A DNA stretch of 33,231 bases from positions 1-33,231 of the IMG/VR virus record IMGVR_UViG_3300020045_002400; one strand, written 5' to 3'. Of the stretch, positions 1,493 through 30,998 are shown in pieces; position 1 is the first letter of the stretch; every line of letters begins with the position of its first letter. This DNA comes from a virus. Lineage: Duplodnaviria > Caudoviricetes. Position numbers and translations under genes: made by a program. The notes under the pieces were generated by a model. That model was not told the origin of the DNA. It saw nothing but the letters and a program-made list of their open reading frames with translations, and searched no databases.

Positions 1493-2108
1493 AATGGTCT
1501 AATTCGTTAATAGGGTAAAAATCACCGTCTTCAAGATATGCAATTACAGCAGTTCTATCATTTAAAGCTACAAATTTAATATCCTTAATAATTCTAGGTT
1601 GAGATTGCAATAAAGCTTTAGTATTAACAATGCTTTTAAATCTAAAGTTAACAATTACTTTATCATCTATCATAAACCTAGTACTAGAATGTTTAATAAC
1701 ATTATAATGTTCAGGATATAAATTAGGTATTACGTCAATAATATCAACTGTAGATTCAGATACATTAATAAAATCATCAAAACAATCTAAATCACTATTT
1801 ATTATCTTACTCATTATATCAAGTATAACAAATACTTTAGGATATATTTCTATTTTCCTATTGGTAGGATAGTCTTTAAGAGTAGTAGCTTTAACAACAG
1901 GAGATTTTCTTGTTGTAGGTTTAGTAATCTTAGGTTTTTTAATAGTAGCTTCTCCTTGTGCATTTGCACTTTCAAGACCTATATCGTTTAAACTCTTTCC
2001 TATGGGCAAAGTTTGTCCAATATCGTCTTGCTTGCCCGTAGTAGAGAGTTTATTCGTGTCTTGTGCAAGAGTCTTAAAATTTCTTTGTTTATCCATTACT
2101 TTACCCAA
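1479..2108 (-). CDS. Hypothetical protein with low-complexity K/T-rich N-terminus
   Basis: 209-aa ORF overlapping both neighbours in the replication operon; its N-terminal coding region carries two copies of the 24-bp motif. Confidence 0.75.
   Translation of the reverse strand: MGKVMDKQRNFKTLAQDTNKLSTTGKQDDIGQTLPIGKSLNDIGLESANAQGEATIKKPKITKPTTRKSPVVKATTLKDYPTNRKIEIYPKVFVILDIMSKIINSDLDCFDDFINVSESTVDIIDVIPNLYPEHYNVIKHSSTRFMIDDKVIVNFRFKSIVNTKALLQSQPRIIKDIKFVALNDRTAVIAYLEDGDFYPINELDHYVEN
1985..2056. repeat. 24-bp motif pair 1 (+ copy 1985-2008, - copy 2033-2056)
   Basis: cgtttaaactctttcctatgggca (+) and cgaataaactctctactacgggca (-); 1988-2008 is identical over 21 nt to 15668-15688. Confidence 0.9.
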
Positions 2109-4417
2109 TGTTGTGCTGTCACATGGTCAGCTTTAATTGTTACATTATGTAAATATCTATTAGCAACAGTTACCATAATATCATTTTTGGCTTCTGCAAT
2201 ATCCTTATAAAATTCACCTTTTTTAAATTTATGAGGTAAAAGTTTAGGGTCTATATTAGGATTAAATTCTAATAGTAAATCATCTTTAACTTTATCTACA
2301 ATTTCATCGTGTACCCACAATAATATTTTAGCTTTAAGTTTACGTTTACGATAGTATGTTCCTAATACTACACTAGCTTCTTTAACAAAATCAGCTTGTG
2401 TACCTTGTATTCTAATATTTCTAGCATCAGATTCATCTTTACTTATTTCTAAAAAATGCGTATCTTTATTTATTTCACCTTTAAGTTGTTTAATAAGATT
2501 AGGAAACCAAGCTCTAGAATTAGTTCTATAATTTAAAATAACGTAACCTTGTGCAATAGCGGCTGCTGTAGCACTTTTAACCATTCTAAATGTATCGGGT
2601 AATTCTTTTTCAATAGTATCTATTACTATCTTACCTTCTTCTTTAGGAATATTAAGGGATATACCTGCTTTCTTAGGATACATTCCATATATTACTCCGA
2701 ATGTCATTTTCTTAAAATCTTTTCTATATCCTGGAGGATCAGTTTTAGTAACAGTAAAATTTTTACCATTTTCTATGAATTTTTCCCATTCAGAATATAA
2801 AGCTTCACGAATACCACCAACAACTTTATTTAATTGTTTATAAATATTACCAGCACGTCGTTTAAATATAGCTCTCCAACAAACAGTAGCCATATAACTA
2901 TGCATATCTATTTTAGATAAACTAATAAGCTTAAAATCTTGAGCGTGAGAAGCCATAACAATTAATTCAGCACCTTCATAATCAGATGTACGTAATTTTT
3001 CACCTTCAGGAGCAATAAAACAACTTCTATATTCAAAAGTAGCAGGAACATTTTGAGATTGAAATTTATCAGGTTCTTTATTACCTCCACCTGATTGCAT
3101 TCTACCTGTAACAGCGTGATTTTGTCTATAAATAGTATGAAGTTTACCTGTAATAGGGTTAATTTTATTAATATAATTAAGACCGTAATTAGTAATTTTA
3201 GTATTAACTTCACTAAAACTATCAAATAAAAGTATAAAATCTTTCATTATAGTATTAGGTTTATCTATTAAATATCTTTCAAAACCAACAGTACTGACTG
3301 TATAATAATTTGAACCATTAACAATTTTTCCTTTATCAGTGATATTAGGTATTGCATATCCATTTTCAATAGGTAAAGGTTGATTGAGTCTACCAAATAT
3401 TCTAATAACTTCAGAAGGAGAGTTATAATCAGGATTTAAATTTCCATCTTCTTTATAATCTTTCTTATTAGTTAAAGCTTTAATAGTAGCAGGTTCACCA
3501 AATAAATCAAATACATTAGTAGTTTTATCACTATTGATTAATATACTTGCTTGTGCAGGACGTCTAATTTCATTATACTTTTTACCTCCTAAAGTTAAAG
3601 CAGGAGATAAACCCTTATAAAGCTCGTGATGTACAATAAAATCTCTTACCTTACGAATTTCTTCATCCATAGCTAATTGTAGTTCAAACTTTTTAGTTTT
3701 ATTAGCATTAAGAATACTAGTCCATTTTTCAATATCAAAATCAATACCTTCATTTTCACTATCAGCTAGTATAGATATTAGAGGAAATTCAATACCATAA
3801 ATAAGAAACTCCATCTTAAATTGTTTAATTCTAGGACGTTGTAATTGTCTTATTTTAAGAGGGTCATTAAGGTCATTAGCTAAATACTTAATATGATGAT
3901 ATTCAATATTAAAAGTTTCAACATTTTTATCTACAAATTCTAATCTAGTATCTTTATCTCTATATTCTTTAAGGTATCTTTTTACAAGTTCACCTAAATT
4001 ATTATATTGATAAAACTTCATATAAAGACGTTGTTCAGCAAGAATAACATCATATACACGAGTTAATAATAAACCATATTTAGCTTGTATAAATTTAATG
4101 TCAAATTTAAGATTAGCACCACATATTACAATTTTGTATTTAATAATATGTTCATATAAAAATGTAAGGTCAATATCATAACCAAATATAAATTGATTAG
4201 ATAATGTACCTATACCTGTTAACATAATATTAGATACATAAGGGTCTAATCCTGTAGTTTCTAAATCCAGTGATTGCATTTTAGATTTACCTATTACATT
4301 ATGGTACATTTTTCTACCATAGGCTTCATCTATAATAACCATATCTTCGAACTCTTTAATAGTAGGATTAAGTCTTTCTCTATAATATTCAGGTTTATTA
4401 GTTACAAAATATATCAT
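2096..4417 (-). CDS. polA: DNA polymerase family A with 3'-5' exonuclease domain
   Basis: ExoI DLETTGL, ExoII NLKFD, ExoIII YLAND; TGRMQS; motif A SDYEGAEL, motif B RKDFKKMTFGVIYG, IQGTQAD and motif C VHDEI. Confidence 0.96.
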   Translation of the reverse strand: MIYFVTNKPEYYRERLNPTIKEFEDMVIIDEAYGRKMYHNVIGKSKMQSLDLETTGLDPYVSNIMLTGIGTLSNQFIFGYDIDLTFLYEHIIKYKIVICGANLKFDIKFIQAKYGLLLTRVYDVILAEQRLYMKFYQYNNLGELVKRYLKEYRDKDTRLEFVDKNVETFNIEYHHIKYLANDLNDPLKIRQLQRPRIKQFKMEFLIYGIEFPLISILADSENEGIDFDIEKWTSILNANKTKKFELQLAMDEEIRKVRDFIVHHELYKGLSPALTLGGKKYNEIRRPAQASILINSDKTTNVFDLFGEPATIKALTNKKDYKEDGNLNPDYNSPSEVIRIFGRLNQPLPIENGYAIPNITDKGKIVNGSNYYTVSTVGFERYLIDKPNTIMKDFILLFDSFSEVNTKITNYGLNYINKINPITGKLHTIYRQNHAVTGRMQSGGGNKEPDKFQSQNVPATFEYRSCFIAPEGEKLRTSDYEGAELIVMASHAQDFKLISLSKIDMHSYMATVCWRAIFKRRAGNIYKQLNKVVGGIREALYSEWEKFIENGKNFTVTKTDPPGYRKDFKKMTFGVIYGMYPKKAGISLNIPKEEGKIVIDTIEKELPDTFRMVKSATAAAIAQGYVILNYRTNSRAWFPNLIKQLKGEINKDTHFLEISKDESDARNIRIQGTQADFVKEASVVLGTYYRKRKLKAKILLWVHDEIVDKVKDDLLLEFNPNIDPKLLPHKFKKGEFYKDIAEAKNDIMVTVANRYLHNVTIKADHVTAQHWVK

Positions 4418-4426
4418 AAGTACGAA

Positions 4427-4741
4427 TTAAAATGGTTGTCCTTCAATAGGATGAATATGTTTCTCTAGTTTATATAAAATATTAGTAACAGTTTTCATTC
4501 TAAGAGTTTGATGATTATTATCAGGGTAATCAAAGTGAAGATTACATAAAGCTTCTAAGAAAGATACTTGTCTAAATTCTATATAAGATATTATTATACT
4601 CATAAGGTAATCAAGAGGTACTTTTTCATATACTATATTAAGGTCTGCTTTGTTATTATTTAAATTACAAAATGCTCTTAAACCTATATAAGTATTAGGA
4701 TACTTAACTTTAATATTAGCAATATAGTCTTTACTTGTCAT
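4427..4741 (-). CDS. Hypothetical protein
   Basis: The ORF track gives 4427..4786 from a non-ATG start; the ATG at 4741 (MTSKDY) overlaps the end of the helicase gene and is the more plausible start. Confidence 0.7.
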   Translation of the reverse strand: MTSKDYIANIKVKYPNTYIGLRAFCNLNNNKADLNIVYEKVPLDYLMSIIISYIEFRQVSFLEALCNLHFDYPDNNHQTLRMKTVTNILYKLEKHIHPIEGQPF

Positions 4742-6104
4742 TATCGTAGAATAATAATGTTTTACTTGTACGAGATGCAGCAACATATAGTAAACTACGT
4801 CTAGTAAAAGGATGATAACACTTTCTAAATGATGGTATATAAATACCTACATTGTTATATGTACTTCCTTGACTTTTATGAGTAGTTTGACAATAACCAT
4901 AATCAAAGTCTTTCTTAGCTACTTTATCATTGTAATTATTGAATACTTCATAGTTAATAAGTAATTTATTTTTAAAGTCATAAAAAGCCTTCCAACTTCT
5001 AAATTGTACACCATTAGTATGACGCATTACAAGTTCAGTTTCAAAATCAACTTTACTATCAGGATGTAACATAGTTAAAATATTACTATTACCAACAACA
5101 CTACATTCATAAACTTTGTAATATTGTTTTAGTACTTTAACATCTTTAATTTGTACATCTTTAATAATATAATCTTCTGAATTTCTAATATGACTAGAGT
5201 AATAAGGTGGAGTATCTGTTTCTTCTCCTACAGTATTATAACCTTTAATTATATCTCCAGGTGCTACTAATTCAATAGAAGGATTAAGTTGTTTTCTTAA
5301 AACTCCATTAACAGCAGTAACTGTAGCATTATCAAAAGCTAATAATTTAGTATCATAAGGGTCATTATGAGCTTCATCACTTCTATAATGTCTAAGTATT
5401 TCATCAACATAAGATTTACCTTTACGTAATAAATAACCTTCTCCTAAATCATTAAATGTATCTTCTATTCTCATTACTTGTGGTAAGAATAAATCTGTAC
5501 CATTAATAACATCTTGAGTAGCAGTATAGATTAATTCATTAACAGGGTTACTATCAGCTTGTCTTACTATTTCAGTAAGGGCAACTTGAGGATATTGAGT
5601 AAATGTAGGACTTATAGCAAAATCTTTCTTATCTTTTTCAACAGGGGGTAATTGGTATCTATCACCAATGAATAATATTTTTACTTTGTATTCTTTAGAA
5701 AGCTTTTTAATTAAGTTATTAATATAACCTCCAATCATAGAACATTCATCAATAATAACTAAGTTATATTTTGATATACGTTCCATACCTTGTGGCATAA
5801 ACATAACATTAGTAGGATCAAAGTCTTCCATATTAACATTAGGTCTTAAACCTAATAAAGCTTGTATTGTTTCTCCGGGGTAACCTGTCATTCTATTAAT
5901 AACAGTTTTAGCTTGATGGGTAGGAGCAGATACTGCTACATTTCTTATTGTACTCTTTCTAATAATTTCTTTAACAATGGTAGATTTACCACTACCAGCA
6001 GGACCAGTAAGAGTAAGTATATCATTACTATCAAGAACATATTTAGAGTTAATAAAATTTCCTACTACTTCAATGGCATTTAATTGTCCATTAGTGAAAA
6101 TCAT
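4731..6104 (-). CDS. Dda/RecD-like superfamily 1B DNA helicase
   Basis: GPAGSGKS, APTHQA, TIQALLGL, IIDECSM, IGDRYQLPPV, LTEIVRQ, TTHKSQGSTY and LLYVAASR. Confidence 0.93.
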   Translation of the reverse strand: MIFTNGQLNAIEVVGNFINSKYVLDSNDILTLTGPAGSGKSTIVKEIIRKSTIRNVAVSAPTHQAKTVINRMTGYPGETIQALLGLRPNVNMEDFDPTNVMFMPQGMERISKYNLVIIDECSMIGGYINNLIKKLSKEYKVKILFIGDRYQLPPVEKDKKDFAISPTFTQYPQVALTEIVRQADSNPVNELIYTATQDVINGTDLFLPQVMRIEDTFNDLGEGYLLRKGKSYVDEILRHYRSDEAHNDPYDTKLLAFDNATVTAVNGVLRKQLNPSIELVAPGDIIKGYNTVGEETDTPPYYSSHIRNSEDYIIKDVQIKDVKVLKQYYKVYECSVVGNSNILTMLHPDSKVDFETELVMRHTNGVQFRSWKAFYDFKNKLLINYEVFNNYNDKVAKKDFDYGYCQTTHKSQGSTYNNVGIYIPSFRKCYHPFTRRSLLYVAASRTSKTLLFYDNDK

Positions 6105-8997: not shown

Positions 8998-9110
8998 CTA
9001 TAAATTTTACCTTGTCCTTTTAATATTGCACCATTAGAATCAAGTAAATAACCATTTACAGTTTTTCTATGTTGTTTTTTAAGTTTTTCTGTTGTTTTAA
9101 TTCCAGCCAT
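8940..9110 (-). CDS. Small basic hypothetical protein (56 aa, not in ORF track)
   Basis: MAGIKTTEKLKKQHRKTVNGYLLDSNGAILKGQGKIYRNCESVGRYRPTIHNLHII*; starts 11 nt after the stop of 9122..9451. Confidence 0.6.
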   Translation of the reverse strand: MAGIKTTEKLKKQHRKTVNGYLLDSNGAILKGQGKIYRNCESVGRYRPTIHNLHII

Positions 9111-9121
9111 AATTATAAGTA

Positions 9122-9451
9122 TTAAGTTAATTGTTTAATGAATTGTTCAAGGTATTCTAGTCTTTTGATTTTACGTTCTTTAGTAGTATGTGTATGAAAT
9201 AAAGTTTCTAGTACTTCATCTGTTAATTCAGGGAAAGCTTTACACGTTTCTTGATAAGACCAGTCATTTCCATCCGGTGATGCAGCTATAAATGTATTTA
9301 AATCCCATAATAATACAGGTAATATAATACATAATCCAAATCCTTTTGTTTGAATAGGATTATTTATATATTCTACAGCTTTAATATATACCTCTAATCT
9401 TATTTCTTTAGGTACTTCTTGTTTTAGATTTAATATGTGTGTATTTATCAT
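9122..9451 (-). CDS. Hypothetical protein
   Basis: 109-aa co-oriented ORF with GLC...FPEL pattern. Confidence 0.75.
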   Translation of the reverse strand: MINTHILNLKQEVPKEIRLEVYIKAVEYINNPIQTKGFGLCIILPVLLWDLNTFIAASPDGNDWSYQETCKAFPELTDEVLETLFHTHTTKERKIKRLEYLEQFIKQLT

Positions 9452-9568
9452 TGTGTTATTATGTATTAAATTATTGACTTTTTGACTACATTACTATTGT
9501 TACTTGGTATATTAGTGGTTAAGTGTGTTAGTATATGTAGAAACATATCGTCAGATGTTAGTAGAACC

Positions 9569-9624
9569 TGCCCATAGAGAAAGATTAATTCGAACTTACT
9601 CGTTATCACTCTCTACTATGGGCA
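9569..9624. repeat. 24-bp motif pair 2 (- copy 9569-9592, + copy 9601-9624)
   Basis: cgaattaatctttctctatgggca (-) and cgttatcactctctactatgggca (+), 8 bp apart and intergenic. Confidence 0.9.
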
Positions 9625-9650
9625 GTCTACAATCCAACTACACAACACTC

Positions 9651-9896
9651 TTATATTACAGCATTTAATATATTATTAAATTCCTGTAAATTACTTATAT
9701 TACCTTTAAATCTAGTATCACTAATATCTTTATATACTATATGGAGATGATGAGGTCTTTTTACTCTATTAGTAATAACCCAATTAATTACCATACAAGT
9801 AGTAACATTATAAGCTGATATTATATGGTCTTGTTCTTTAGCTAGGATTTTAAATCCTTTATTCTTTAGGTAATCTGTTATTACTTTATAATTCAT
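9651..9896 (-). CDS. Hypothetical protein
   Basis: 81-aa co-oriented ORF. Confidence 0.7.
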   Translation of the reverse strand: MNYKVITDYLKNKGFKILAKEQDHIISAYNVTTCMVINWVITNRVKRPHHLHIVYKDISDTRFKGNISNLQEFNNILNAVI

Positions 9897-9922
9897 AATG
9901 TTAGTTATTAGGTTAATTTTAT

Positions 9923-10471
9923 TTAGTCAGTTATTTCTATTACCCAATTAATTAAAGCATTATAACATTGTTCTGTTATAGTATCTTTATATTTATTAGC
10001 TAATTGTTTTATATAATTTTCTTTAGTAACTTTATAAGCAGCAAAAGCCAATTCTATAGTTTTATATGTACCTATTGAAGTCTGTTTTCCTTCTATACTT
10101 ATTCTACTTCTAAAAGAATTTCCTCTTTTATATACACCTACAGGATATAAACCTCTACTTGTATTAGATAATGTAAATACTACATTTATATCATTTGGTA
10201 CAAAACAACAAGTTTCAGGACTATATACTTTATTACCTTTAACTAATATATCTTTATCTAAACAATAGTTTTCTTTATAATTATCGTAATACCATTTAGC
10301 AAATATTTGAAAATTATGCCATTCTTCTGATACTGTACATCCTATATAATAAGGTTTCTTTTTTTGAATAGTATCATTATAACAACGTGCTAGCATATTT
10401 CTCCACGTTTCATAACAAGGAGTATGAGCTTTATAATCACCATTCCCGTGTATTCCAATAAGTCTTGTCAT
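9923..10471 (-). CDS. HNH-type homing endonuclease-like protein with AP2-like C-terminal domain
   Basis: YETWRNMLARCY, GCTVSEEWHNFQIFAKW and LDKDILVKGNKVYSPETCCFVPNDIN, followed by AP2-like GVYKRGNSFRSRI...IGTYKTIELAFAAY. Confidence 0.85.
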   Translation of the reverse strand: MTRLIGIHGNGDYKAHTPCYETWRNMLARCYNDTIQKKKPYYIGCTVSEEWHNFQIFAKWYYDNYKENYCLDKDILVKGNKVYSPETCCFVPNDINVVFTLSNTSRGLYPVGVYKRGNSFRSRISIEGKQTSIGTYKTIELAFAAYKVTKENYIKQLANKYKDTITEQCYNALINWVIEITD

Positions 10472-10492
10472 ATTCTTTTAATTTTAATTAGC

Positions 10493-10863
10493 ACCATCTT
10501 ATTTATATTATTAAATAAAATGGTCATTATGCTGGTAACTCCTGCTATAATCATCAAGATACATTACAGTAATAGGAACAATGTCAAGGAAGTTCTATTA
10601 ATAATCGTCTTTAAGTTCACTCTCGAATACCATTTCAAGTGTTATAGCCCATCCCTTATGTATTCGGGTATGGTTTATTTTGTATAATATAGATAATTAA
10701 AGTAGCAAATCTATGCTGTTAAATTTATTGTCGACTAAGCATTGTCTTACTTTTAGACGAGGCTTCTTTTTATCTATTTACAAGGACATAGGTTTATCCT
10801 CCGGATCAAGTATTAGTATAAGCATTAGTAAATGGGAATAAACTAACGAGAATATTTAATACT
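10493..10863 (-). ncRNA. Tandem stem-loop array; candidate structured RNA(s)
   Basis: Successive stems at 10493-10524, 10570-10600, 10622-10668, 10680-10783 and 10809-10863 span the intergenic gap. Confidence 0.4.
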
Positions 10864-10865
10864 AT

Positions 10866-11054
10866 TTAAAGGTTAGCAAATTTGTAACCGTAACTATTAT
10901 AATTAATAGCGTTAAAATGTGTAATAACTTTAACATTAAGGCTCTCAAGGAACTTAAGAGTATTACGTGTTTTGTAATCATTAGATGTAACTAATACACC
11001 TTTAGAGACTCTAGGTCTTCTTTGTTTTGTTGTTGTAACTGTAGTTGTACTCAT
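10866..11054 (-). CDS. Small hypothetical protein
   Basis: 62-aa co-oriented ORF with ATG start and AT-rich leader. Confidence 0.65.
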   Translation of the reverse strand: MSTTTVTTTKQRRPRVSKGVLVTSNDYKTRNTLKFLESLNVKVITHFNAINYNSYGYKFANL

Positions 11055-11088
11055 AATATTAATTAGAGATTAAAATGTGAATATATAT

Positions 11089-11460
11089 TTATTCACAAAA
11101 GTTAGTTGTTATTAGATTTCTATTTGTTAGTTCAATGTACAAGTATTTAATAGCGTGTATTTGTATTATAACTGTAAGCTTTTCAAGAGAATATTTAGTT
11201 TTAGCTATTGCATACTTAGTATTACTATTTTTGTATTGATTATACATATTAAGAAATAACTTATAAGATTTATACTTTTTATTGTCTGTTACATATAATC
11301 TAATAAGGTAGTGTGATACTTCTATTTGAGTATCTAATTGGTCTTTCTTATATACTATTGTAGAATTGTCTTTATGTTCAATGATATAATCATTTTTCTT
11401 TATAACAAATTCAATAGTAGAAATAGACATACTAAAGTATTTTGGATTAGCACTATACAT
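11089..11460 (-). CDS. Hypothetical protein
   Basis: 123-aa co-oriented ORF. Confidence 0.65.
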   Translation of the reverse strand: MYSANPKYFSMSISTIEFVIKKNDYIIEHKDNSTIVYKKDQLDTQIEVSHYLIRLYVTDNKKYKSYKLFLNMYNQYKNSNTKYAIAKTKYSLEKLTVIIQIHAIKYLYIELTNRNLITTNFCE

Positions 11461-11487
11461 AATTATATGTGTATTAATTATAGTATA

Positions 11488-11625
11488 TTATACCCAATGA
11501 GTCTTCTTATATTCTTTATCTCGTACATTGATTTGTTCAATAGGACAAGATGGAATAGAAGGGTTAGACTTTGGGTATAATTTATACTTTAGTTTGGTTA
11601 GTAATTGAGTTAGTTTTGATATCAT
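11488..11625 (-). CDS. Small hypothetical protein (45 aa, not in ORF track)
   Basis: MISKLTQLLTKLKYKLYPKSNPSIPSCPIEQINVRDKEYKKTHWV*; starts 2 nt after the stop of 11628..11882 and fills the gap. Confidence 0.55.
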   Translation of the reverse strand: MISKLTQLLTKLKYKLYPKSNPSIPSCPIEQINVRDKEYKKTHWV

Positions 11626-11627
11626 AA

Positions 11628-11882
11628 TTATTTACTGTTATCTTTAATATCTTTGATGGTATAAATACCTTGATGACCATTATCCATTGGGATAACTTGT
11701 GTATCATCAGGTAATAGGTGTGCAATAGGATTAGTAAATCTAATACCATTACTTCTAAAAGCAATAGGTATAAGATATTCTTCTATATTATCTGGATTTG
11801 TTTCTGTATTACTAGAGTATTCCATATAATCATTATCTCTTATTAGAGATTTAGGGATTGATATTCCAAATGTTGTTGACAT
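11628..11882 (-). CDS. Hypothetical protein
   Basis: 84 aa, MSTTFGI...DNGHQGIYTIKD. Confidence 0.75.
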   Translation of the reverse strand: MSTTFGISIPKSLIRDNDYMEYSSNTETNPDNIEEYLIPIAFRSNGIRFTNPIAHLLPDDTQVIPMDNGHQGIYTIKDIKDNSK

Positions 11883-11904
11883 AATATATGTATTAAGGTT
11901 AGTA

Positions 11905-12171
11905 TTATTTTATAACATTATATGTTTTTAATTCTAATAATTCTGCTACTTTTTGTATAGCATCTTTAAAAGTATAAGCTGGGCTCTTTATTAATTCTTT
12001 ATAATTTAAACCTATACCTAATACTTTTTCATCTGTTGATACAATTAAAATATGTATTGTTTTATCTTCATTATATATTTCATCTATATAACCATTTGTT
12101 ATAGTATTAAGATTCTTTATAGATTCGGATGCTAATGTAGCTTTTAACCATTCTTTAGTAAAAGGGTTCAT
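11905..12171 (-). CDS. Hypothetical protein
   Basis: 88-aa co-oriented ORF. Confidence 0.7.
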   Translation of the reverse strand: MNPFTKEWLKATLASESIKNLNTITNGYIDEIYNEDKTIHILIVSTDEKVLGIGLNYKELIKSPAYTFKDAIQKVAELLELKTYNVIK

Positions 12172-12201
12172 AATATTTGTAGTTTTAATGGTTAATGTAT
12201 C

Positions 12202-12529
12202 AGTTATAAGATATGTAGGTTAAAGTTTAGATATTAATGATAATGTAGTATTAACTTTTCTTCTGTTAAATAACCTAATACATCAGCAGTAATAGGTGTA
12301 GTATAATCTAATTTACCGTCTTTATCTAATACTGCTAATTCCCATAAACCTTCTTCGTGTCCATAAGAGAAAGAATGTTGTACAATACTAGCTCCATAGC
12401 CATTATCGGCTTTAAAATGAATATTGTATTCCTCCATTAATAGGTCTTGAAGGTAAAGTTTTAAAATCTATTGTATTGTCAGTTGTGTTCATAATAATTT
12501 GTTTAAATTGGTTAGTTATAAGATATGTA
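12202..12529. repeat. 16-bp perfect direct repeat agttataagatatgta (12202-12217 and 12514-12529)
   Basis: Read directly; each copy lies 21-30 nt upstream of a minus-strand ATG. Confidence 0.8.
12220..12492 (-). pseudogene. Small phage protein (NGYGAS...GLWELAVL type) with two compensating frameshifts
   Basis: The ATG 12492 frame reads MNTTDNTIDFKTLPSRPINGGIQYSF*. The core lies in another frame (12234..12437) and the tail VNTTLSLISKL* returns to the first frame. Total span is 273 nt. Confidence 0.6.
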
Positions 12530-12565
12530 AGTTTAACTTAATATTATTACTATATCGGGTTGAGG

Positions 12566-12575
12566 TGCAAAGGTA
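12566..12575 (-). promoter_or_regulatory. Bacteroidota sigma-A -7 promoter element
   Basis: Minus-strand TACCTTTGCA matches TAnnTTTG, ~75 nt upstream of the first small leftward gene; no clear -33 TTTG. Confidence 0.55.
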
Positions 12576-12599
12576 GGGATTTTGTTGAGAATGTTAATG

Positions 12600-13100
12600 A
12601 AATGTGGGCTAAAGGTTGAAAAATAGGCGGTTGGTTGTACGATAATTTGATGGAAATAATGTTAATCCATTGTGAACGATGTATTTGGAAATAGGCTGGA
12701 TTTGATTGAGATTGTACCTATATATATATAGGTGTAATTAGTCAGCTAGTTGTTTGAGGATTTTGATTACTTGTTTTAATAGGTAAGTGAGTGTTATTAT
12801 GAGAGTTATAAGTATTAAGATAGAAATAATAGGATGGAATGTGAAAATAGATTGAATAAATGACATAAGTTAGACGGTTAAATGGTTGAGGATAAGGTTA
12901 TAAAGGTTAATATAAATTGGTATTGAAGATTATAGGTTGTAATTGATTGATTTAGAAGGGGTAAAGGGGTTTATGAGGGTATTAGTTGAGGTAATAGTGA
13001 AAAGGACTTGGGAGAGAAGGGGATTTAAGGGATAAGTGAAAAACGGGAATATGAGGTTAATTTAGAGGTGTTGAGGGATATGTGGATATTGGTGTATGTA
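12600..13100. other. C-depleted, G-rich non-coding tract
   Basis: Only 4 C in 12781-13080; no ORF in the track. Confidence 0.9.
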
Positions 13101-13143
13101 CATCTGTAGCTGTATAGCTGTGCCTCTTCTCGATTATTTCATA

Positions 13144-13575
13144 AATAATAACAATTATATAGGCTGAATAACATAAAGATTACCTTGCATTATACTATCA
13201 CTCCATAGCTTTACAAATTAAGGGGTAAACTGAGTTCTTGTTAGACTACTTAAAACCTATATAATTGTATTATTAATAACAGTCCAGAGTAATAGTAAAT
13301 TAACCTTAAAAAACTACCACTCTATCGGACTGTTACAACTACTATAAGCGCATTACTAGTCATACCTATGTTTACTAGCCGTTATGTGCCACTTATGCTA
13401 CGGATATTATGAGGTACTATACTTCACTCAAAGTCTATTATCTCTTATAGTAGTTTAATCATCATTACCAAACCTCTTTTAATCCAGTAATAACAATATA
13501 TTAATATCTTTTACCCTGCTACTACTAGCTCTCCTAGGTTATATACATTTACATCACTAGTAGTAAGGGCAAAGA
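13144..13575 (-). ncRNA. Array of four stem-closed units; candidate structured RNA(s)
   Basis: Stems 13144-13163/13256-13274, 13277-13296/13313-13335, 13337-13348/13444-13455 and 13507-13528/13557-13575; A-C mismatches become G-U on the minus strand. Confidence 0.55.
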
Positions 13576-13583
13576 GTGGATAG

Positions 13584-14144
13584 TTATTCACTATCTTTAC
13601 GTTCAAATTCAATTGGGTTATAAGTATCTCTTTCAGGTATTATATCAGCAGGAATTTTAAAAGCCTTTTTAGGTAATACAGGTTCAGTAGCAAGAGCAAT
13701 ATCTCTAGCCATATTATTATTATTCTCTTTAACTATATCAGCAGTATTTTTTAACGGTTTATTTTTATTCTTTAAATAATCATAAACGTGAACCTTCTTT
13801 ACCAATGTATTACTAGCTCTTTCTATCTTTTTAATTACTTCATTATATTCTTCTTCATCAATATGGTTAACTAATTGCATAATTTTACGTTTAGTACACC
13901 ATAGTTTATAGTGTTTATTAGCTTGAGTAAAAGAAACTATAGCAAAAGTAAAAGATATAATAGCAAGAGATAATAAAAGAATACATTGAAATAAGAAAGT
14001 AATACCAAAGTTATAGACTTCTGTAGTACCAAGTGGTTGGAAGTCTGTGGTTATGTTGTTGTATGATAATACAGCGTACTTTATTAGTAATACTGTGATG
14101 AATAAGGATAGTAATCCTATTAATGATAGTTTAATTGTTTTCAT
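13584..14144 (-). CDS. Membrane protein with two N-terminal TM segments and a basic soluble tail
   Basis: Hydrophobic runs LSLIGLLSLFITVLLIKYAVL and FGITFLFQCILLLSLAIISFTFAIVSF. Confidence 0.75.
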   Translation of the reverse strand: MKTIKLSLIGLLSLFITVLLIKYAVLSYNNITTDFQPLGTTEVYNFGITFLFQCILLLSLAIISFTFAIVSFTQANKHYKLWCTKRKIMQLVNHIDEEEYNEVIKKIERASNTLVKKVHVYDYLKNKNKPLKNTADIVKENNNNMARDIALATEPVLPKKAFKIPADIIPERDTYNPIEFERKDSE

Positions 14145-14212
14145 TTGTGTATGTATTTATGTTAGTTGAATGTAATGTGAGTTTGATTAGTAATCTGAGT
14201 TTAATTAGAGGT

Positions 14213-14261
14213 AAAAAATAGTTCCCGTATCCTGCCTCGAGAGCACCCATTACGGGCACTA
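14213..14261 (-). terminator. Possible intrinsic terminator with an alternative pairing
   Basis: Minus strand reads tagtgcccgta-(21 nt)-tacgggaacta-tttttt, downstream of 14312..14941. Confidence 0.5.
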
Positions 14262-14311
14262 CACGAGAGCAGTTTACGAGAGCTATTAATCAAGCAGGAC
14301 TAGCTACCTTA

Positions 14312-14941
14312 CTATTTAGCAGGTTTAGCAGGTTTAACTGATTTTTGAGTAGCATCTTCAGGAACCATATCAAATACTGTTTCAGCTGGTGTTTCAACAA
14401 CAGGAGCAACAATAGCTTGCGGTTCAACAGGAGCAGATGCAACAGCAGGAGCACCAATACCAAACAAACCTTGCATAATAATCAAAGGATTAGCACTAGC
14501 AAGGAAAGCTCTTTGAGCATTCTCCAAATCAGTCAATGGGAATGTTACAAAGCCTTCAATACGAGAACCTTTCTTTTCAGTGAAAAGTATTTGTCCTACT
14601 TTAGCCTCTCCACGTACTACAGCAGAACTAACTTCTGTAGCTACATATTCAGCACCAGCCTCGTAGAATTCAACATCGGCAAATCCAGATTTACCAATCA
14701 ATCCAATGATAGACTCACGGAATAGATTATGCATAATAGGATTAGCACTATCAACTCCATTATCATATAGACCAGAAGGTATATTAGATGCACGAGCTGA
14801 TTTGTGTAAGTCAAGCAATGCTTGTTTACAAGTTCTAGCAATTTGTTGTGTTGTTCCATTAACAACTACAGTTAGACCTACGAATGGCTCTGTTCCAGCT
14901 TTCGTAATAATGTCTGAGGCGATAACATTGAATGTTTTCAT
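14312..14941 (-). CDS. Hypothetical protein with Pro/Ala/Glu-rich C-terminal tail, probably highly expressed
   Basis: 209 aa, somewhat higher GC with biased codons; first credible gene of the left arm. Confidence 0.85.
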   Translation of the reverse strand: MKTFNVIASDIITKAGTEPFVGLTVVVNGTTQQIARTCKQALLDLHKSARASNIPSGLYDNGVDSANPIMHNLFRESIIGLIGKSGFADVEFYEAGAEYVATEVSSAVVRGEAKVGQILFTEKKGSRIEGFVTFPLTDLENAQRAFLASANPLIIMQGLFGIGAPAVASAPVEPQAIVAPVVETPAETVFDMVPEDATQKSVKPAKPAK

Positions 14942-15140
14942 AATTAAAATATTTAAGGGTTAAAGATTACAAGTGGTTAACACGTTCATAGGCAACTAAA
15001 CTAACACTATCATAAGTTTCTACAAACTTGAATTAATATGTGTCTTGAATACCAATTTTAGTTTCAAGTTTAATTGCCACGGAATGTGGACGGGGTATGT
15101 TAAATCCCCGAAATGATGTGGGGGTAATTCCACGGGTGGG

Positions 15141-15441
15141 TCTATATCCATATAACTCATATATAATTTTACCTCCAATACATCAATATATACTAATCTC
15201 TAAAATCCTATCCTTTTAATCCTTTTCTAAACTCTTACCAATTTCTTCTTCAATAACCTCTTACAACCCTATATAACCTCTCCCTATTTTCCCAAAATTT
15301 TTTATATCTACTAATACCCAAAAATTTATATTTAATTTTATATTTACCAACATCAAAAAATCTACCATATTTTATAATATTTTTTTTATTATACTTCTAT
15401 ATATAATAACCTTTCCATATCTATATCTATATCCTACTCTC
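15141..15441. other. 301-bp tract with no G on the plus strand
   Basis: Last G at 15140, next G at 15442. Confidence 0.95.
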
Positions 15442-15517
15442 GTAAAATTGGTAATAATACCTATAAGTTCATTAGTACTAACAAGTCTAGGATGGTATAT
15501 AGGAAGAGGGTCAAGAC

Positions 15518-15688
15518 TGCCCTTAGGAGAAGGTTTATACGTGTTAGTAAGATTTAACAAAATTTTAACATTTTAAATTAGGACTATATAGGTGGTATTG
15601 TTATATTTCAAATATATATATTTATATATAGTATTATATACTTAAATGTATATAAAACCTAAGACGATTAAACTCTTTCCTATGGGCA
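15518..15688. repeat. 24-bp motif pair 3 (- copy 15518-15541, + copy 15665-15688)
   Basis: cgtataaaccttctcctaagggca (-) and cgattaaactctttcctatgggca (+), located in the strand-switch region. Confidence 0.9.
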
Positions 15689-16388: not shown

Positions 16389-16390
16389 CA

Positions 16391-16825
16391 ATGAATATTG
16401 ATAATACTTTAGCAAAGATAATAACAGAAACCCAAAAGGCTATTGCTAAAGAATATGGTATAGATTTAACATTTGAACAAGTACATGAAGTTATAGAAGT
16501 TCAATTAACTTCAACTGTATATGCTCTTACTAAGAATATACCTATTCATTGGCGTGGTTTCTTAAAGTTTATATGGACTAATAAAAGAGCTCGTAAAGCT
16601 GAATTTGACCCTGTCTTTAAAGCTATACAAGATAATGCTCATAATCTTACTGATAAGGAAATTGATTATTATACTTACTTAGCTGGTGTTGCGGCTAGTT
16701 CTGCTAAACAAGAATTAGAAAGATTAAGTCAACATTCTAAAGTTCTTAGTCCGGAAGAAGTAAAAGCTATTCCTACTAAGGTAGAAAAGTTTAGACAATT
16801 TACTTGTTTAATTAAACAAAAATAG
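16391..16825 (+). CDS. HU/IHF-like DNA-binding protein
   Basis: AIAKEYGIDLTFEQVHEVIEVQL...ALTKNIPIHWRGFLKFIWTNKRARK matches the HU/IHF helix and RGFxxF pattern. Confidence 0.65.
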   Translation: MNIDNTLAKIITETQKAIAKEYGIDLTFEQVHEVIEVQLTSTVYALTKNIPIHWRGFLKFIWTNKRARKAEFDPVFKAIQDNAHNLTDKEIDYYTYLAGVAASSAKQELERLSQHSKVLSPEEVKAIPTKVEKFRQFTCLIKQK

Positions 16826-17500: not shown

Positions 17501-18472
17501 ATGATACCATTAGTAGAATCACAAGCCAAAGAATTAATCTTTACTGAACACAACCATAAATATCGTGATGAAAATAATGTTGTATATACATCTGTTACTA
17601 CACTTATAGAGAAATATAAGAATCCTTATGATAGAGAATTTTGGAGTATGTATACTGGTCTTAAAGATGCTGGGTATAGACTTAAACCTTATCCCGAAGA
17701 ACAAGCTATTAGATTAGGAAGTGTTAAATATAAACTTGCTGATTTAAAGAAAGAAACTTATTATGTACAATTACAAGACCTTACTAAAGCTAAGTGGGAT
17801 TTAAAAACTACAGAAGCTTGTATGCGTGGTAATGGTATACATAATGGTATAGAACTTGGTATTAATAAAACTCGTAATGATATACAAGCTAGAGATAATG
17901 ATTTAATTACTTATGAAACTAATCCTTTTAAATACGGTAAGAATATATCTAGTCTTAATGATTTAGACGCTTCACCACTTAAAACTGATTATCCTTTTAT
18001 ATATAATAAATTAAAACCTCTTGTAGAAGGCGGAGCAACTGTTTTAGCAGAGAAACGTGTATATCTTTCTAAATATAAATTAGCTGGTACTATTGATTGT
18101 CCTATTATAAAAGGTAAATATTTTTGTATTTTAGATTGGAAATCTAATGCTGCTGATATGCATGATACACCGGGTTATTATCAGAAAGTAAATATAGGTG
18201 GTGAATGGATAAAATCAGATAATTGGATAATAACAGAAGATAAGTTTAATGCTCCTATTAGTCATATACCTGCTTCCAAGTTTCATACATACTGTTTACA
18301 ATTAAGTATATATGCTTATATTATGGAACAATGGGGATATACTCTTATACAAAATGGTCTTGCCATCGTCCATTATCCTCTTAACAAAGAGCCTGTATAT
18401 CTCCAAGTTCCATATTTAAGAAATGAAGTTATAGCCTTATTAACTGACCATAACAGAAAGCTCTCCGCATAA
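17501..18472 (+). CDS. PD-(D/E)XK nuclease (RecB/Cas4-like fold)
   Basis: SVTTLI, RGNGIH, AEKRV, AGTID, ILDWKSN and YCLQLSIYAY. Confidence 0.88.
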   Translation: MIPLVESQAKELIFTEHNHKYRDENNVVYTSVTTLIEKYKNPYDREFWSMYTGLKDAGYRLKPYPEEQAIRLGSVKYKLADLKKETYYVQLQDLTKAKWDLKTTEACMRGNGIHNGIELGINKTRNDIQARDNDLITYETNPFKYGKNISSLNDLDASPLKTDYPFIYNKLKPLVEGGATVLAEKRVYLSKYKLAGTIDCPIIKGKYFCILDWKSNAADMHDTPGYYQKVNIGGEWIKSDNWIITEDKFNAPISHIPASKFHTYCLQLSIYAYIMEQWGYTLIQNGLAIVHYPLNKEPVYLQVPYLRNEVIALLTDHNRKLSA

Positions 18473-21335: not shown

Positions 21336-23693
21336 ATGCTATTACCTAATCAACTACTAACAGCTACAGAAAAAGCTAAAAGAAATCAAGATACTGGACT
21401 TACAAATATAGAAGAAACAATTGTTCACTATATAGATAGTTCAGGTTGGAAAAAAGAATATGATGAAGTTAATAAACTATTTGCTGCTGTAGAAGGTATT
21501 ATAGATTATAGTGAATATAAAGCTATATTTGGTTCTACTAATCAAGATAATGGTGCTAATACAGACTTTATGTATAAAGCTAAATTAGCTAATTATAATA
21601 TCCTTATGGGTATTGTTAAATTATTACTTGGAGAATATGGTACACGTTCCCATGAATATGAAGTTGTTAATCTAAACCCTAATGATGATATTAGTCGTCA
21701 GCAGGGTTTATCTATATTACTTAAAGAGTATCATAAAAAGAAAGTTCTTATGGACTTTCAAAAAGTAACAGGTTTAATGCCTACAGAAGAACAACCTTTA
21801 CCTGAGTTACAAACTATTGTAGATAACTTTAATACTACTTTTAATGATGCTACATTAATAAAAGGTCAAGAAGCTTTAGATTTTATTAGATTTTATTGCG
21901 ATATTGACCATAAAATTATAGATGCTTATTACGATTGGATTGTAACAGGTGGAGCTTATACATATAAAGATGTTCTTAATGGGGAAGTTATTTATGAACA
22001 TGTACCTAGAAATGAACTCTTTGTTATTAATATGAAACCGGGTTCTAGTTTAGTAGAAGAAGCTGATGTTCATATTAGACGTAGAATAATGAGTCCTTAT
22101 CAAGTCCTAGAAATGCTTCAAGATGAGTTAAAAGAAGATCATATTAAGGCTTTTGAAGAAGAAGTTAATAATGGATTTAATGAATATAATCAACAATATA
22201 CAAGTACAGGTAGAAATGGTGTAATGTCTTCACCCTCTAATTATGTAAATTCTACTATACCTATGATATGTTATACTAATGGATTAGAAGTATTCCACGT
22301 AGTATATACTACTTATAAAGATGTATATATTTTATCTTATTTAGATGAATTTGGTTTACCGCAAGAAAAGGAAATTACAGCTGATTATGAATTACAACCT
22401 GACCTTGGAGATATAGAAATAACTATGGAATGGTACACTTGTAAATATCAAGGTTATAAAGTACTAGATTATTTCTTTAAATGTGGAGAAGTAGAATTTG
22501 ACCGTTCTGATGTAGATTCTAAAGGTAATTTAAAATCTTGTTATAATGGTATTATTGCTCGTACTAGAGTAGGAGAAATTAATTCTATTGTTAAAGATGG
22601 TATGGTATATCAACGTAATGTTAATGTTATTAAATTTAGTATAGAGAAATTAATCAATAAAAATAAAGATAAAGTACTTGTTTTACCATACGGATTAGTA
22701 CCTAGAACAAAAGGTATTAGTACAGCTAAACAAGCCTATCACATGGAAGCTACTTCTGTATTATGGGTTGATGAAGCCGCTCCTAATGCTGCTTTTGCTT
22801 CTCAAATGATTAAAGTTGTTGATATGTCATTAAACAGTATTATCAAAGAACTTAGTGATTTAGTTATACAAACTAAAAATGAATATTGGGAAGCTATCGG
22901 TATGAATGCTCAAAGATATTCTGATGTAAGTCAATATGCAGGTAAAGCTACTACAGAACAAGCTATTGTACGTAGTGCTATTATTACTTATGAACTTACT
23001 CGTGCTTTTGATAAGATGTTAGAAAAAGATTATCAAGGTTTATTAGATATATCTAAAATAGCTTGGATTAACGGAGTTAAAGAAGCTTACATATATAGTG
23101 ATGGTTCACGTGGTGTATTTGAAATGAATGTTGATGATGCTAACTACCACGCTAGTTCTAATTACAATGTATTTGTTAAGGATGCTACTACCAATACTAG
23201 AGGTATAGAAGCTATGAGAAGTTTTGCTGGTGCTATGATTCAAAATGGAGCAACGGCTAGTGCTGTCAGTAAAATGTATACTACTAATAGCACGTCTAAA
23301 GTTAGTGTATTACTTGAAAAAATGGAAAAAGCACAACAAACTATAGAAGAACAAAAAGCTCAAGCTGACCACGATAGACAAGTACAATTACAAGAAATGC
23401 AAAATGAATTACAACAAGCTATATCAGACTTAAAAGAATATGAAATTGATAGTAGATTAGAAGGTGTTAAATACACTGCTGATATGCAATATGCAGGAAA
23501 AGAGTTGACTGTTGATGATAATGACAGCCAAGACTTGCCCTTAGAAGAGGATAATACGTTTGATGAATACCTTGCAACTAGAGAAACTAATAGAAAAGAT
23601 AAAATGGATAACCATACTATTAGAAAAGATAATAAAGAATTAATACTTAAAGAGAAAGCTTTAAAACAAAAGAAAGTAACAAGTAATAACTAA
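21336..23693 (+). CDS. Portal protein
   Basis: 785 aa directly after terL; NYNIL...LLGE and EAIGMNAQRY...KATTEQAI segments; helical acidic C-terminus; crAss-like synteny. Confidence 0.85.
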   Translation: MLLPNQLLTATEKAKRNQDTGLTNIEETIVHYIDSSGWKKEYDEVNKLFAAVEGIIDYSEYKAIFGSTNQDNGANTDFMYKAKLANYNILMGIVKLLLGEYGTRSHEYEVVNLNPNDDISRQQGLSILLKEYHKKKVLMDFQKVTGLMPTEEQPLPELQTIVDNFNTTFNDATLIKGQEALDFIRFYCDIDHKIIDAYYDWIVTGGAYTYKDVLNGEVIYEHVPRNELFVINMKPGSSLVEEADVHIRRRIMSPYQVLEMLQDELKEDHIKAFEEEVNNGFNEYNQQYTSTGRNGVMSSPSNYVNSTIPMICYTNGLEVFHVVYTTYKDVYILSYLDEFGLPQEKEITADYELQPDLGDIEITMEWYTCKYQGYKVLDYFFKCGEVEFDRSDVDSKGNLKSCYNGIIARTRVGEINSIVKDGMVYQRNVNVIKFSIEKLINKNKDKVLVLPYGLVPRTKGISTAKQAYHMEATSVLWVDEAAPNAAFASQMIKVVDMSLNSIIKELSDLVIQTKNEYWEAIGMNAQRYSDVSQYAGKATTEQAIVRSAIITYELTRAFDKMLEKDYQGLLDISKIAWINGVKEAYIYSDGSRGVFEMNVDDANYHASSNYNVFVKDATTNTRGIEAMRSFAGAMIQNGATASAVSKMYTTNSTSKVSVLLEKMEKAQQTIEEQKAQADHDRQVQLQEMQNELQQAISDLKEYEIDSRLEGVKYTADMQYAGKELTVDDNDSQDLPLEEDNTFDEYLATRETNRKDKMDNHTIRKDNKELILKEKALKQKKVTSNN

Positions 23694-23823
23694 AATTAAT
23701 ATATTATGACAGACGATGTTATAAACAAACCTAATGACCAATTTAGTTCATTAGATGATGTAAGTTTAGAGGGAATACATAATCCTATAGAAACAACCCC
23801 GAATAACCCTTCTCCTACGGGCA
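23536..23823. repeat. 24-bp motif pair 4 (- copy 23536-23558, 23 bp; + copy 23800-23823)
   Basis: cgtattatcctctt-ctaagggca (-) in the portal 3' end and cgaataacccttctcctacgggca (+) in the 5' end of the next gene. Confidence 0.85.
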
Positions 23824-27757: not shown

Positions 27758-27763
27758 AAACTT

Positions 27764-28849
27764 ATGACTGTTTCCGAAATCCACATAGGCTTAGGAATAC
27801 TGTTACAGAAGGTAAATACACATAAATCAAAGAACTTCCTACCACAGGAATTAGATATGTTATTTAACTTTACATCTTTAAATTATAAAGATAAACGAAC
27901 AGATTCCCTTTCTAATCCAAAACAAGTATCACTTTTTGATACTCAAACAACCTTAGATAGTCTTAATAGTTTATTTGAAACAGAAACATTATATCCAATA
28001 AGTAATACTAAAGAGGAAGCAGTTATATTGCTTCCTCTTGATTTTTACGGTTGGATTAGTGCTTCTGCTAACGTAGCTTATGACTGTACAGGTACTTATA
28101 CTACACAAATTGGTGGTGTTATAACTAAAGAGTATTCTATGGTTAATTTAAAAAACATAAATTTAACTAATATAACAAGTTTTAAAATTGAACTTAATTA
28201 TGTAGATAAAAATAATGTTTCACAATTAGTTACTATATTTGATTATACTTTATTACCTAATGACTATTTACCTCAAGATGGTATTAAAGATTATAAACGT
28301 TCTTTTATTTTTATTAATGCTTTAGTTAATACTATTAACTTAAAACTTGTTGATATAAATACAAAGAGTAAAGATAAAATATATTGTAAGTATGATAATA
28401 AAACTGAGCAATTAGTTATTAGTTCTATTAATAATATAATGTTATCTTTAACTACTAATGTAGCTGGTTATTCTTTTATTATTAAAAATACTGTTAGTGA
28501 TAAAATTAATCTTATTACTGGACTTACTTCTCCTGTTGCAATTAGTGACTTAGAATATAATCCGTATATAAACAATTCACACCTCTCACATAGCCGAGAA
28601 AGTGAAATACGAGCCGACAGGACTAGGGAAAACATGAAAGTATATATTCCAAAAGGGTTAACATTTTCAAGCCTTACGCTCCATTATATCCGTAAACCTC
28701 GACAAATTGACTACCTTTTGGGTATAGGTTCAGATTTACCTAATGATATAGTTAATAAAATAATAGCTGATACAGCTCAATTTATTAAAGGTATTATAGC
28801 TTCTGATTCCTATGATAAATTTGTTAGAGAAAATATATTAATTGAATAA
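27764..28849 (+). CDS. Putative tail ring/adaptor protein
   Basis: MTVSEIH...FLPQELDMLFN N-terminus, LPLDF, and LHYIRKPRQI...DLP C-terminus, as in crAss-like ring proteins. Confidence 0.65.
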   Translation: MTVSEIHIGLGILLQKVNTHKSKNFLPQELDMLFNFTSLNYKDKRTDSLSNPKQVSLFDTQTTLDSLNSLFETETLYPISNTKEEAVILLPLDFYGWISASANVAYDCTGTYTTQIGGVITKEYSMVNLKNINLTNITSFKIELNYVDKNNVSQLVTIFDYTLLPNDYLPQDGIKDYKRSFIFINALVNTINLKLVDINTKSKDKIYCKYDNKTEQLVISSINNIMLSLTTNVAGYSFIIKNTVSDKINLITGLTSPVAISDLEYNPYINNSHLSHSRESEIRADRTRENMKVYIPKGLTFSSLTLHYIRKPRQIDYLLGIGSDLPNDIVNKIIADTAQFIKGIIASDSYDKFVRENILIE

Positions 28850-28861
28850 ACAAAAAAGAAG

Positions 28862-29782: not shown

Positions 29783-29836
29783 TACAGTAGAGAAAACGAC
29801 TTAGTTTTTTAATTAAAATTTTGAATTGATTGTTGG

Positions 29837-29867
29837 AAACCTACTGTTACTTGTTGACAGTAGGTTT
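29837..29867 (+). terminator. Probable intrinsic terminator
   Basis: aaacctactgtta-cttgt-tgacagtaggttt followed by an AT-rich tail. Confidence 0.7.
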
Positions 29868-29891
29868 ATTAATTTTAACCCTATTGATATT

Positions 29892-30998
29892 ATGTATTAT
29901 AAAGATAATTATACTGAAATTAGATTAGGCGTAGGGATTATGGATTTTATTAGTATTCTAGGTATAACCTTAGATTATAAATTAATAAAACTAATACCTA
30001 ATGAACCTGAAATACTTATTGCTGAATTTACATCTGATGAACCTTTAACAGTTTACCCTAAAGATGATGGTAATTATAAATTAGAAGTAGCAAATGAAGC
30101 TTTTACTACTTACTATATTTATATTACTATTAGAGATAAATTTATTACTGAGTTTATTACTAAAATTATAGATACTATTTGTAATTGTGGTTGTAATGAT
30201 ACTTTTAATCCTTGTACTGAAACGCAAATGGGTAATATAGCATTAAAACGTCAAAAGCTATTTAATACCACATCTATATTACCTTACACGATTAAACCCT
30301 TCTCTACGGGCGAGGCTTTAACGACAAATGATAAACTTATATCAATTTATCAACTTTATTATAATACATCTATGGTTGCAAAATTAGATGAATTAGGTAA
30401 AGAATATTTTGATTATTATATTAAAGGTACTAATGTTATTAATATGAAGTTATTTAAAGATATTATAGCTTTAAATTATTATGCTTTATATTATTATACA
30501 AGAACTGAAATATTACCTACTGCATTAGAAAAAAGAAATGAATATATTAAACAAATTGATGCTTTTTTTAATTATAATACAGTTAATACTTGTTTAGCTT
30601 GTACTGACCTTATATCTAATATTGAAGATATAATTAATAATCCCCCTCCTTTTACTTCTCCTGTTATGATTTATTATTGGCAACTTCCTTTATCTAATAC
30701 ATTAGAAGATATTATACCTACTTTTAATGAGCCTGCTTATATAAATAAACCTCATGAAACTTTAGTCGTATTTAATACAGGGGTTGCAATTGAAAATATT
30801 TCTATAGGTCGTTTAGCTTTAGCTGTAACTAATACTGAAAATATTGAATATGAAATTATCGATATTATAACAACTAATAATATAACTGCTTTATTTGAAT
30901 CTCATTATTTTGAAGATTTAGGTGTATTATTATATGTATCTATAGTTCCTTATAGCTTATCTACTTTTAACATTAAAATTAAAAAACTAATACCATAA
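29892..30998 (+). CDS. Putative tail/vertex structural protein
   Basis: The track start 29826 runs through the terminator hairpin, so ATG 29892 is preferred; contains CNCGC and CLAC. Confidence 0.6.
30289..30312 (+). repeat. 24-bp motif, single copy
   Basis: cgattaaacccttctctacgggcg inside the CDS. Confidence 0.85.

Follow-up and report, generated by a model that had tools for sequence, protein, structure and literature searches.

The window, that is the whole stretch of 33,231 nucleotides analysed here (IMG/VR record IMGVR_UViG_3300020045_002400; Duplodnaviria, Caudoviricetes), belongs, judged by its sequence, to a crAss-like phage of an environmental clade: with capsid proteins of Intestiviridae such as crAss002 it shares 30-33% identity in its own, and its genes include PolA, a Dda-like helicase, an SF2 helicase, an exonuclease, terminase, portal and capsid. 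The element studied is an asymmetric 24-base motif, composed of CG, a spacer, CTA, one base H (not G) and GGGC, of which a sequence-only reading had listed nine copies. All nine are present at the positions and on the strands it gave (for minus-strand copies the number is the left end of the 24-mer):

1985..2008, plus strand: motif copy, antisense within a 205-aa gene; convergent partner of the copy at 2033
2033..2056, minus strand: motif copy, sense within the 205-aa gene that also holds the copy at 1985
9569..9592, minus strand: motif copy, intergenic; divergent pair with the copy at 9601
9601..9624, plus strand: motif copy, intergenic; divergent pair with the copy at 9569
15518..15541, minus strand: motif copy in the spacer at a gene-direction switch; divergent pair with the copy at 15665
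15665..15688, plus strand: motif copy, about 180 bp ahead of the first rightward gene
23536..23558, minus strand: motif copy with a 12-base spacer, antisense in the last 60 codons of the portal gene
23800..23823, plus strand: motif copy, sense, at codon 31 of the post-portal gene (probable scaffold)
30289..30312, plus strand: motif copy, sense in a virion-module gene; partnerless in the window

The fixed spacing and the one-per-strand arrangement in four clusters are also as claimed: 13 bases separate CG from CTA in eight of the nine copies and 12 in the copy at 23536 (a spacer preserved in the relatives G001-G004 and G025), and the pairs comprise one convergent (33 bp between first Gs) and three divergent (47, 162 and 279 bp), whereas the partnerless copy at 30289 has a counterpart in G002 with a partner 220 bp off. 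The pattern CG.{12,13}CTA.GGGC occurs nine times, against a mean of 0.005 and a maximum of 1 in 200 dinucleotide shuffles, and a leave-one-out matrix places each of the eight full-length copies within the top eight of all window positions; shuffles, leave-one-out and the sites within genes together rule out chance or a codon artefact as the source of the motif. Its share of all GGGC/GCCC had been overestimated as roughly half and is 9 of 26 (35%). Rfam returned no match to the motif at gathering score. A weak variant, CG-N10-TTACGGGC, lies between two leftward genes at 14240-14258 on the plus strand, and is kept in G001 at 18.8 kb.

Close relatives, proposed as a check, bear the motif out: G001 (a complete relative of 81,848 bp, with a capsid protein 95% identical to that of the window) has 18 exact copies, and G002, G003 and G004 have 11, 4 and 8, with none for a reversed-pattern control; an iterated matrix finds 25 sites in G001. 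In G002-G004 and G025 sites occur at matching codons despite changed spacer letters and amino acids. Among 43 distinct copies, a set chosen by pattern in which CG, TA and GGGC are fixed by that choice, the information spans positions -27 to +6, approximately, and the pyrimidine tract 5' of CTA is poor in G. Genic copies use synonymously rare codons and sit in tolerant protein stretches; they make use of third-position G and C, each of which fills only about 3% of fourfold sites, and selection therefore acts on the DNA. At Carjivirus-like loci, which were picked by motif, 7 of 14 positions (-8 to +5) are polymorphic at no more than 3% of sites, compared with a background of 14.5%. A hairpin was rejected as explanation: pairing is possible in some spellings, but the second stem position varies freely in the window clade.

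Even spacing had been claimed for all copies together; it holds for the series on each strand, with one site per 4-10 kb, essential genes included, but not for the pooled strands. In G001 the 15 plus-strand sites have a coefficient of variation (CV) of 0.41 (p 0.0002) and the 10 minus-strand sites one of 0.45 (p 0.01), with uncorrected p-values and site lists from the iterated matrix, whereas the pooled sites are irregular (CV 0.88; random about 1). Per-strand regularity is likewise found in G002, G005, G011, W03, W04 and W13; strand counts are 12 plus and 6 minus for the exact copies of G001, and 13 plus and 18 minus in W04. Opposite-strand pairing, counted as minus sites that have a plus site no more than 600 bp away, is more frequent than under a shifted-lattice null in 8 of the 16 genomes (in G001 7 of 10 minus sites are so paired, p 0.013); the remaining eight, including G016, crAss002, cr8_1 and crAss001, show no such excess. 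The pairs, 64 divergent and 52 convergent, are 4-1460 bp apart without fixed geometry. The inverted pairs of the sequence-only reading are thus real in the window clade but absent in several relatives, with no fixed distance or direction, and the unit is the series per strand; the excess pairing could in part be due to shared tolerant protein spots. An invertase or site-specific recombination site was rejected, as the word is asymmetric and lacks dyad arms or fixed geometry. No strand-change joints were found at motif sites in eight sequencing runs (in contigs, which drop rare forms), the joints at motif positions in contigs being matches of 20-38 bases to other copies.

The sites of G001 comprise 10 sense, 8 antisense and 7 intergenic copies, and only 2 of the 25 have a same-strand gene start within the next 250 bp. 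This near-equality of sense and antisense in genic copies, the few sites upstream of starts, the codon use and the per-strand spacing all support the proposal of a genome-wide protein-handling site indifferent to genes, while for the process that it serves the evidence only leans.

Across Crassvirales, 42 records were examined (G027, G028 and G030 not included; W01, W07 and W10 for their first 100,000 bases). In de novo scans, distant crAss-like phages carry one design in clade-specific spellings, with a pyrimidine tract, a YTAN-like core and a GG that alone is invariant across spellings:

G005: CTAHGGGG, 18 copies
G006: CTANAGGC, 19 copies
G007: CTANAGGG, 14 copies
G011: CTANTGGGG, 20 copies
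G012: CTTTCGGC, 10 copies
G016 and G019: TTACAGGG, 25 and 15 copies
G018: ATACCGGG, 13 copies, spacing irregular
G020: CAAAGGCG, 12 copies
G021: TATAGGCAG, 11 copies
G022: CTACAGGGA, 8 copies
crAss002: CCTNNANGGGGG, 26 copies
prototype crAssphage: CCTCNACGGGG, 31 copies
G014, G015, Rudgehvirus jaberico and cr8_1: variants of the same design
crAss001: CTTCTGGAG, 27 copies (10 plus, 17 minus), enriched and regular (p 0.04 and 0.001)

A gut crAss-like clade among newly collected loci (L467, L572-L589) has the spelling CTCYCCCACCGGG. The scans detected no regular motif of such a design in phi14:2, cr126_1, Fpv3, ProJPt-Bp1 and three other Suoliviridae, in G008, G010, G013, G024 and G026, or in DAC15, which has an enriched but irregular word; presence is uncertain in cr127_1 and G023, and G017 and G029 show hints only, as de novo scans may miss weak motifs. 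In a block-shuffle control of these scans, word enrichment by itself produced one high score. Separately, cr127_1 (W08) carries ten copies, five per strand, of a GC-rich repeat of about 40 bases containing CGCCCTTGTGGCC, which may be a different element, and in G024, which is distantly crAss-like and has no polar motif, the palindrome CCCNGGG recurs at even spacing (11 sites, CV 0.29). A tie between motif and circular permutation, suggested by crAss002 versus DAC15, was dropped because crAss001 has a regular word; the prototype crAssphage may likewise have fixed repeats (bioRxiv 2024.03.20.585998, in part). One exact window spelling (14 bases specified) did not occur in any of 185,579 bacterial and archaeal genomes, a set that may lack the host. 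No description of the motif was found in the open-licence literature (subscription papers and supplements lay outside its scope), where exact crAssphage motif strings occur in no crAss paper, and the accessible parts of PMC4111155 and PMC8042965 do not use the word 'motif'. The motif is real and conserved through much of the order, and apparently undescribed so far.

Four window genes bear on the search for its reader:

4731..6104, minus strand: Dda/RecD-like SF1B helicase (PHROG 325; T4 Dda 3upu, E 8e-19), by co-variation the candidate motif reader or the reader's partner
17501..18472, plus strand: exonuclease (PHROG 298), co-occurring with Dda, RecT-like and ligase genes, without motif co-variation
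92..1492, minus strand: SF2 (XPB/SNF2-like) helicase, in every motif-bearing genome tested, without co-variation
2096..4417, minus strand: family A DNA polymerase, in contrast to the family B enzyme of motif-bearing Intestiviridae

We compared motif distance with protein distance in a partial Mantel test, holding other core proteins fixed, for 15 genomes at 30-55% identity. Dda was the only clear standout among 19 conserved proteins (partial r 0.49, 0 of 2000 permutations), with primase at 0.08, the virion RNA polymerase core at 0.06, exonuclease at -0.27, and terminase, portal and capsid negative; primase ranged from 0.02 to 0.29 across tests and was never significant in this low-power test. 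The Dda value was 0.45-0.57 under jackknife, 0.60 (p 0.003, n=11) for environmental genomes only, 0.53 (p 0.002) with a single Intestiviridae genome, and 0.29 (0 of 500), still first of the 19, after removal of per-genome lineage rates. The signal is stronger for the motif core, -5..+5 (r 0.47), than for the upstream part (r 0.27), and peaks at residues 55-169, which contain helicase motifs Ia-II, known to contact single-stranded DNA. What is new here is a correlation: Dda sequences appear to co-vary with the spelling beyond shared ancestry.

Every one of the 15 genomes whose motif is well defined has a Dda-family gene; none was found in three Suoliviridae, ProJPt-Bp1, phi14:2, DAC15 and cr126_1, all without a regular motif. 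All motif genomes have primase, SF2 helicase, terminase, portal, capsid, several virion proteins and the giant RNA polymerase, and all except crAss001 have Dda, exonuclease, RecT-like protein and ligase. DnaB-like helicase and polymerase family were rejected as readers, since they vary without tracking the motif. As to the processes named in the sequence-only reading, the evidence leans to a replication or recombination helicase and away from packaging proteins and virion RNA polymerase; no HU/IHF-like gene, another of its candidates, was identified in G001. Among 111 new loci (25 with two further marker genes; mostly from one or two clades), the CTCYCCCACCGGG clade has a Dda nearest that of G022, a motif nearest that of G022 or W03, and an SF2 helicase nearest that of G020. 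The Dda tree sets G016 and G018 apart from the window clade, unlike the terminase, capsid and primase trees, though its departure from the species tree is not significant.

The phage primase is encoded outside the window, at G001 80665-81792. It is a DnaG-type protein with a zinc-binding and a catalytic domain; it has Toprim homologues, and its fold model matches the Aquifex ZBD-RPD structure 2au3 (E 2e-6). Most of the usual Cys/His ligands of the zinc-binding-like domain are missing across 102 homologues, though the model is confident. G001 also encodes a DnaB-like helicase of about 350 aa (2793-3890), which matches the ATPase part of DnaB only, and a conserved 184-aa gene that precedes and co-occurs with it. 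The protein of 1028-1645 (crAssphage gp19) is small, fast-evolving and encoded between RecT-like and SSB-like genes; all 15 genomes with the motif have it and no member of the Steigviridae or Suoliviridae tested does. It shows no co-variation, and has what by eye we take to be an AbrB-like pattern.

The word, its strand-wise spacing, its upkeep in genes, the clade spellings with invariant GG and the absence of one spelling from bacterial genomes are direct observations, and the signal probably serves DNA replication or repair. A regular series on each strand points to a process that treats the strands separately, as a translocating enzyme does. Our leading, if tentative, explanation is that the motif is a one-way signal on each strand, marking stations where a Dda-like 5'-to-3' helicase loads or pauses for DNA synthesis to start or restart; we rank it first because Dda is part of the replication module, because the GG never varies and because two-way starts would come from the pairs. 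Dda, or a tightly co-evolving partner, would read a core of about 10 bases, the phage primase would then begin a primer at or near GG, and close opposite-strand pairs might act as two-way start points. A 5'-to-3' translocating enzyme and a polar word would account for the series per strand, the indifference to genes and the ceiling on gaps. Somewhat less likely, in our estimate, is the broader proposal that a stand-alone Dda-like SF1B helicase reads a private word, forming a self-recognition lattice that licenses phage DNA for restart or protection and leaves host DNA unmarked, with helicase and word co-evolving across the order.

Several observations weigh against helicase loading or pausing. 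The data do not separate loading for priming from stopping, and two tests capable of favouring priming were both null: G and C slopes between sites show no base-composition sawtooth (115,786 fourfold sites, 16 genomes), the pattern which on our premise long Okazaki fragments could leave, with a T trend in sense genes only that is confounded with position in the gene, and no polar change of polymorphism was found beside sites. The link to Dda is correlation only, and Mantel permutations are lenient for related genomes; species-like grouping is not rejected by the Dda data (approximately unbiased test, p 0.35), and thus no gene transfer accompanied by motif transfer is shown. In addition, crAss001 has a regular word, CTTCTGGAG, without a Dda match; in Fpv3 the Dda matches are remote and split and there is no motif, and 49 kb of G013, which has Dda, yielded no motif. 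The new-locus check is weak, as most new Dda loci have G022, a hub, as their nearest reference, and a virion protein family (window 27764-28849) also reaches r 0.33 (p 0.004). We know of no SF1B helicase that reads sequence by itself. Given the related genomes, the unrejected grouping, crAss001, the G022 hub and the virion family, Dda as reader is a candidate, a lead and not a result.

Close behind helicase loading or pausing, though on its own rather unlikely, comes a Chi-like self signal, at which Dda and the exonuclease would resect ends up to a correctly oriented motif before the RecT-like annealase acts, unmarked host DNA being degraded. It would account for both orientations, the gap ceiling of about 10 kb and the indifference to genes, draws on the same Dda co-variation, and fits the co-occurrence of Dda, exonuclease, RecT-like protein and ligase in the motif-bearing clade, the spelling without bacterial or archaeal matches and the Gam-like host nuclease inhibitor annotated in prototype crAssphage; however, the motif of at least 23 bases is longer than Chi octamers, the exonuclease shows no co-variation, such a signal has no need of close pairing and crAss001 lacks the gene set. 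The remaining readings are weaker than these two. That the primase itself reads an extended start site, which would fix Okazaki fragments at 4-10 kb on each strand, is improbable: it is encoded in all motif-bearing genomes including crAss001, the invariant GG fits a purine primer start, and the 10-nt 3' flank of T7 primase sites avoids C (PMC12839067, in part) as the corresponding strand here is C-poor, but primase does not co-vary significantly and is encoded as well in genomes that gave no motif, no sawtooth was seen, and T7 intervals are about 1-6 kb with many more sites.

A virion RNA polymerase promoter, serving DNA pull-in or priming R-loops and not mRNA, is a little less probable still. 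Bipartite anatomy, a preferred spacer (13 bases, range 12-14), an AT-rich stretch and a start at GG recall single-subunit phage promoters; in addition, the giant DFDVD protein is encoded and one divergent pair lies at a gene-direction switch. Yet about half of the genic copies are antisense, few sites precede same-strand starts, the catalytic region (about 900 aa tested) does not co-vary, crAss001, reportedly fixed-ended, has both orientations, and the early transcripts of phi14:2 have no common motif in the accessible part of bioRxiv 2020.03.07.982082. Programmed single-strand nicking of virion DNA at the motif, a feature of T5, phiKMV-like phages and tf, is the reading that we consider least likely. 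The phiKMV consensus CGACxxxxxCCTA/CTCCGG has the same CG...CTA order and tf has 14 dispersed sites, but nicks are on the top strand in tf and the non-coding strand only in phiKMV (PMC3517423, in part), and here both strands carry the motif. Moreover, opposite-strand sites 4-50 bp apart would break the duplex, and no nicking enzyme candidate was identified. The usual repair step of a nanopore kit would seal nicks. Because of this step, the nanopore reads of about 100 kb reported from crAssphage virions (bioRxiv 2024.11.15.623857, in part) were not counted against nicks.

Compared with known systems, the motif is, like Chi of RecBCD/AddAB, polar, G-rich, present on both strands, gene-indifferent and linked to an SF1 helicase and nuclease. 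Unlike Chi, an octamer or shorter and abundant in the host chromosome, it is three times longer, bipartite, evenly spaced and not merely enriched, and private to phage clades, the tested spelling being absent from bacterial genomes; its candidate reader is a stand-alone Dda for which no RecC/AddB counterpart was found. With the nick motifs of phiKMV-like phages and tf it shares a dispersed asymmetric word and the CG...CTA order (PMC3517423, in part), but it occupies both strands, forms close opposite pairs and has a different 3' half. Strong priming sites of T7 gp4 share a short core with informative flank, a C-poor would-be template and kilobase intervals (PMC12839067, in part); here the flank extends to -20, the sites are far fewer, better conserved and on both strands throughout, and primase does not co-vary. 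T4 Dda and ICP1 HelA/HelB belong to the same SF1B family and are tied to replication, repair and recombination, with no dispersed recognition word given in the accessible part of PMC9040626. The middle/late promoter motif of phi14:2 is also repeated in Crassvirales genomes, but is sigma70-like, mostly intergenic and sense (bioRxiv 2020.03.07.982082, in part), whereas the present motif is mostly genic and strand-neutral.

Elsewhere in the window, two long non-coding stretches (12440-13580 and 14942-15866) have strong GC skews of opposite sign, G-rich near 12.6-13.1 kb and C-rich near 15.2-15.4 kb, and lie beside the motif pair at 15.5-15.7 kb; they are a possible origin or genome-end region. 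A scan of 9000-16500 for sigma70 promoters and terminators stayed at shuffle level. An HNH endonuclease gene (9923-10471, minus strand) is absent from the corresponding place in G001. Past 32.0 kb the GC content is higher and an internal-virion-protein gene (32071-32589, plus strand) is not seen in the G001 gene list, so a misjoin or insert is possible there.

The replication mode of Crassvirales is stated to be unknown in the review PMC10136315 (in part). Prototype crAssphage, the cultured crAss002 and Rudgehvirus jaberico have a conserved lattice, 20-30 sites in number, that offers a direct handle on it. The spelling is usable as a clade marker, and with a named candidate reader the pattern can be reduced to an assay of one protein and one oligonucleotide, with swaps between clades as controls. 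A sequence-reading SF1B helicase, if true, would be new enzymology, and a self-recognition lattice, if true, would include the most abundant human gut phage.

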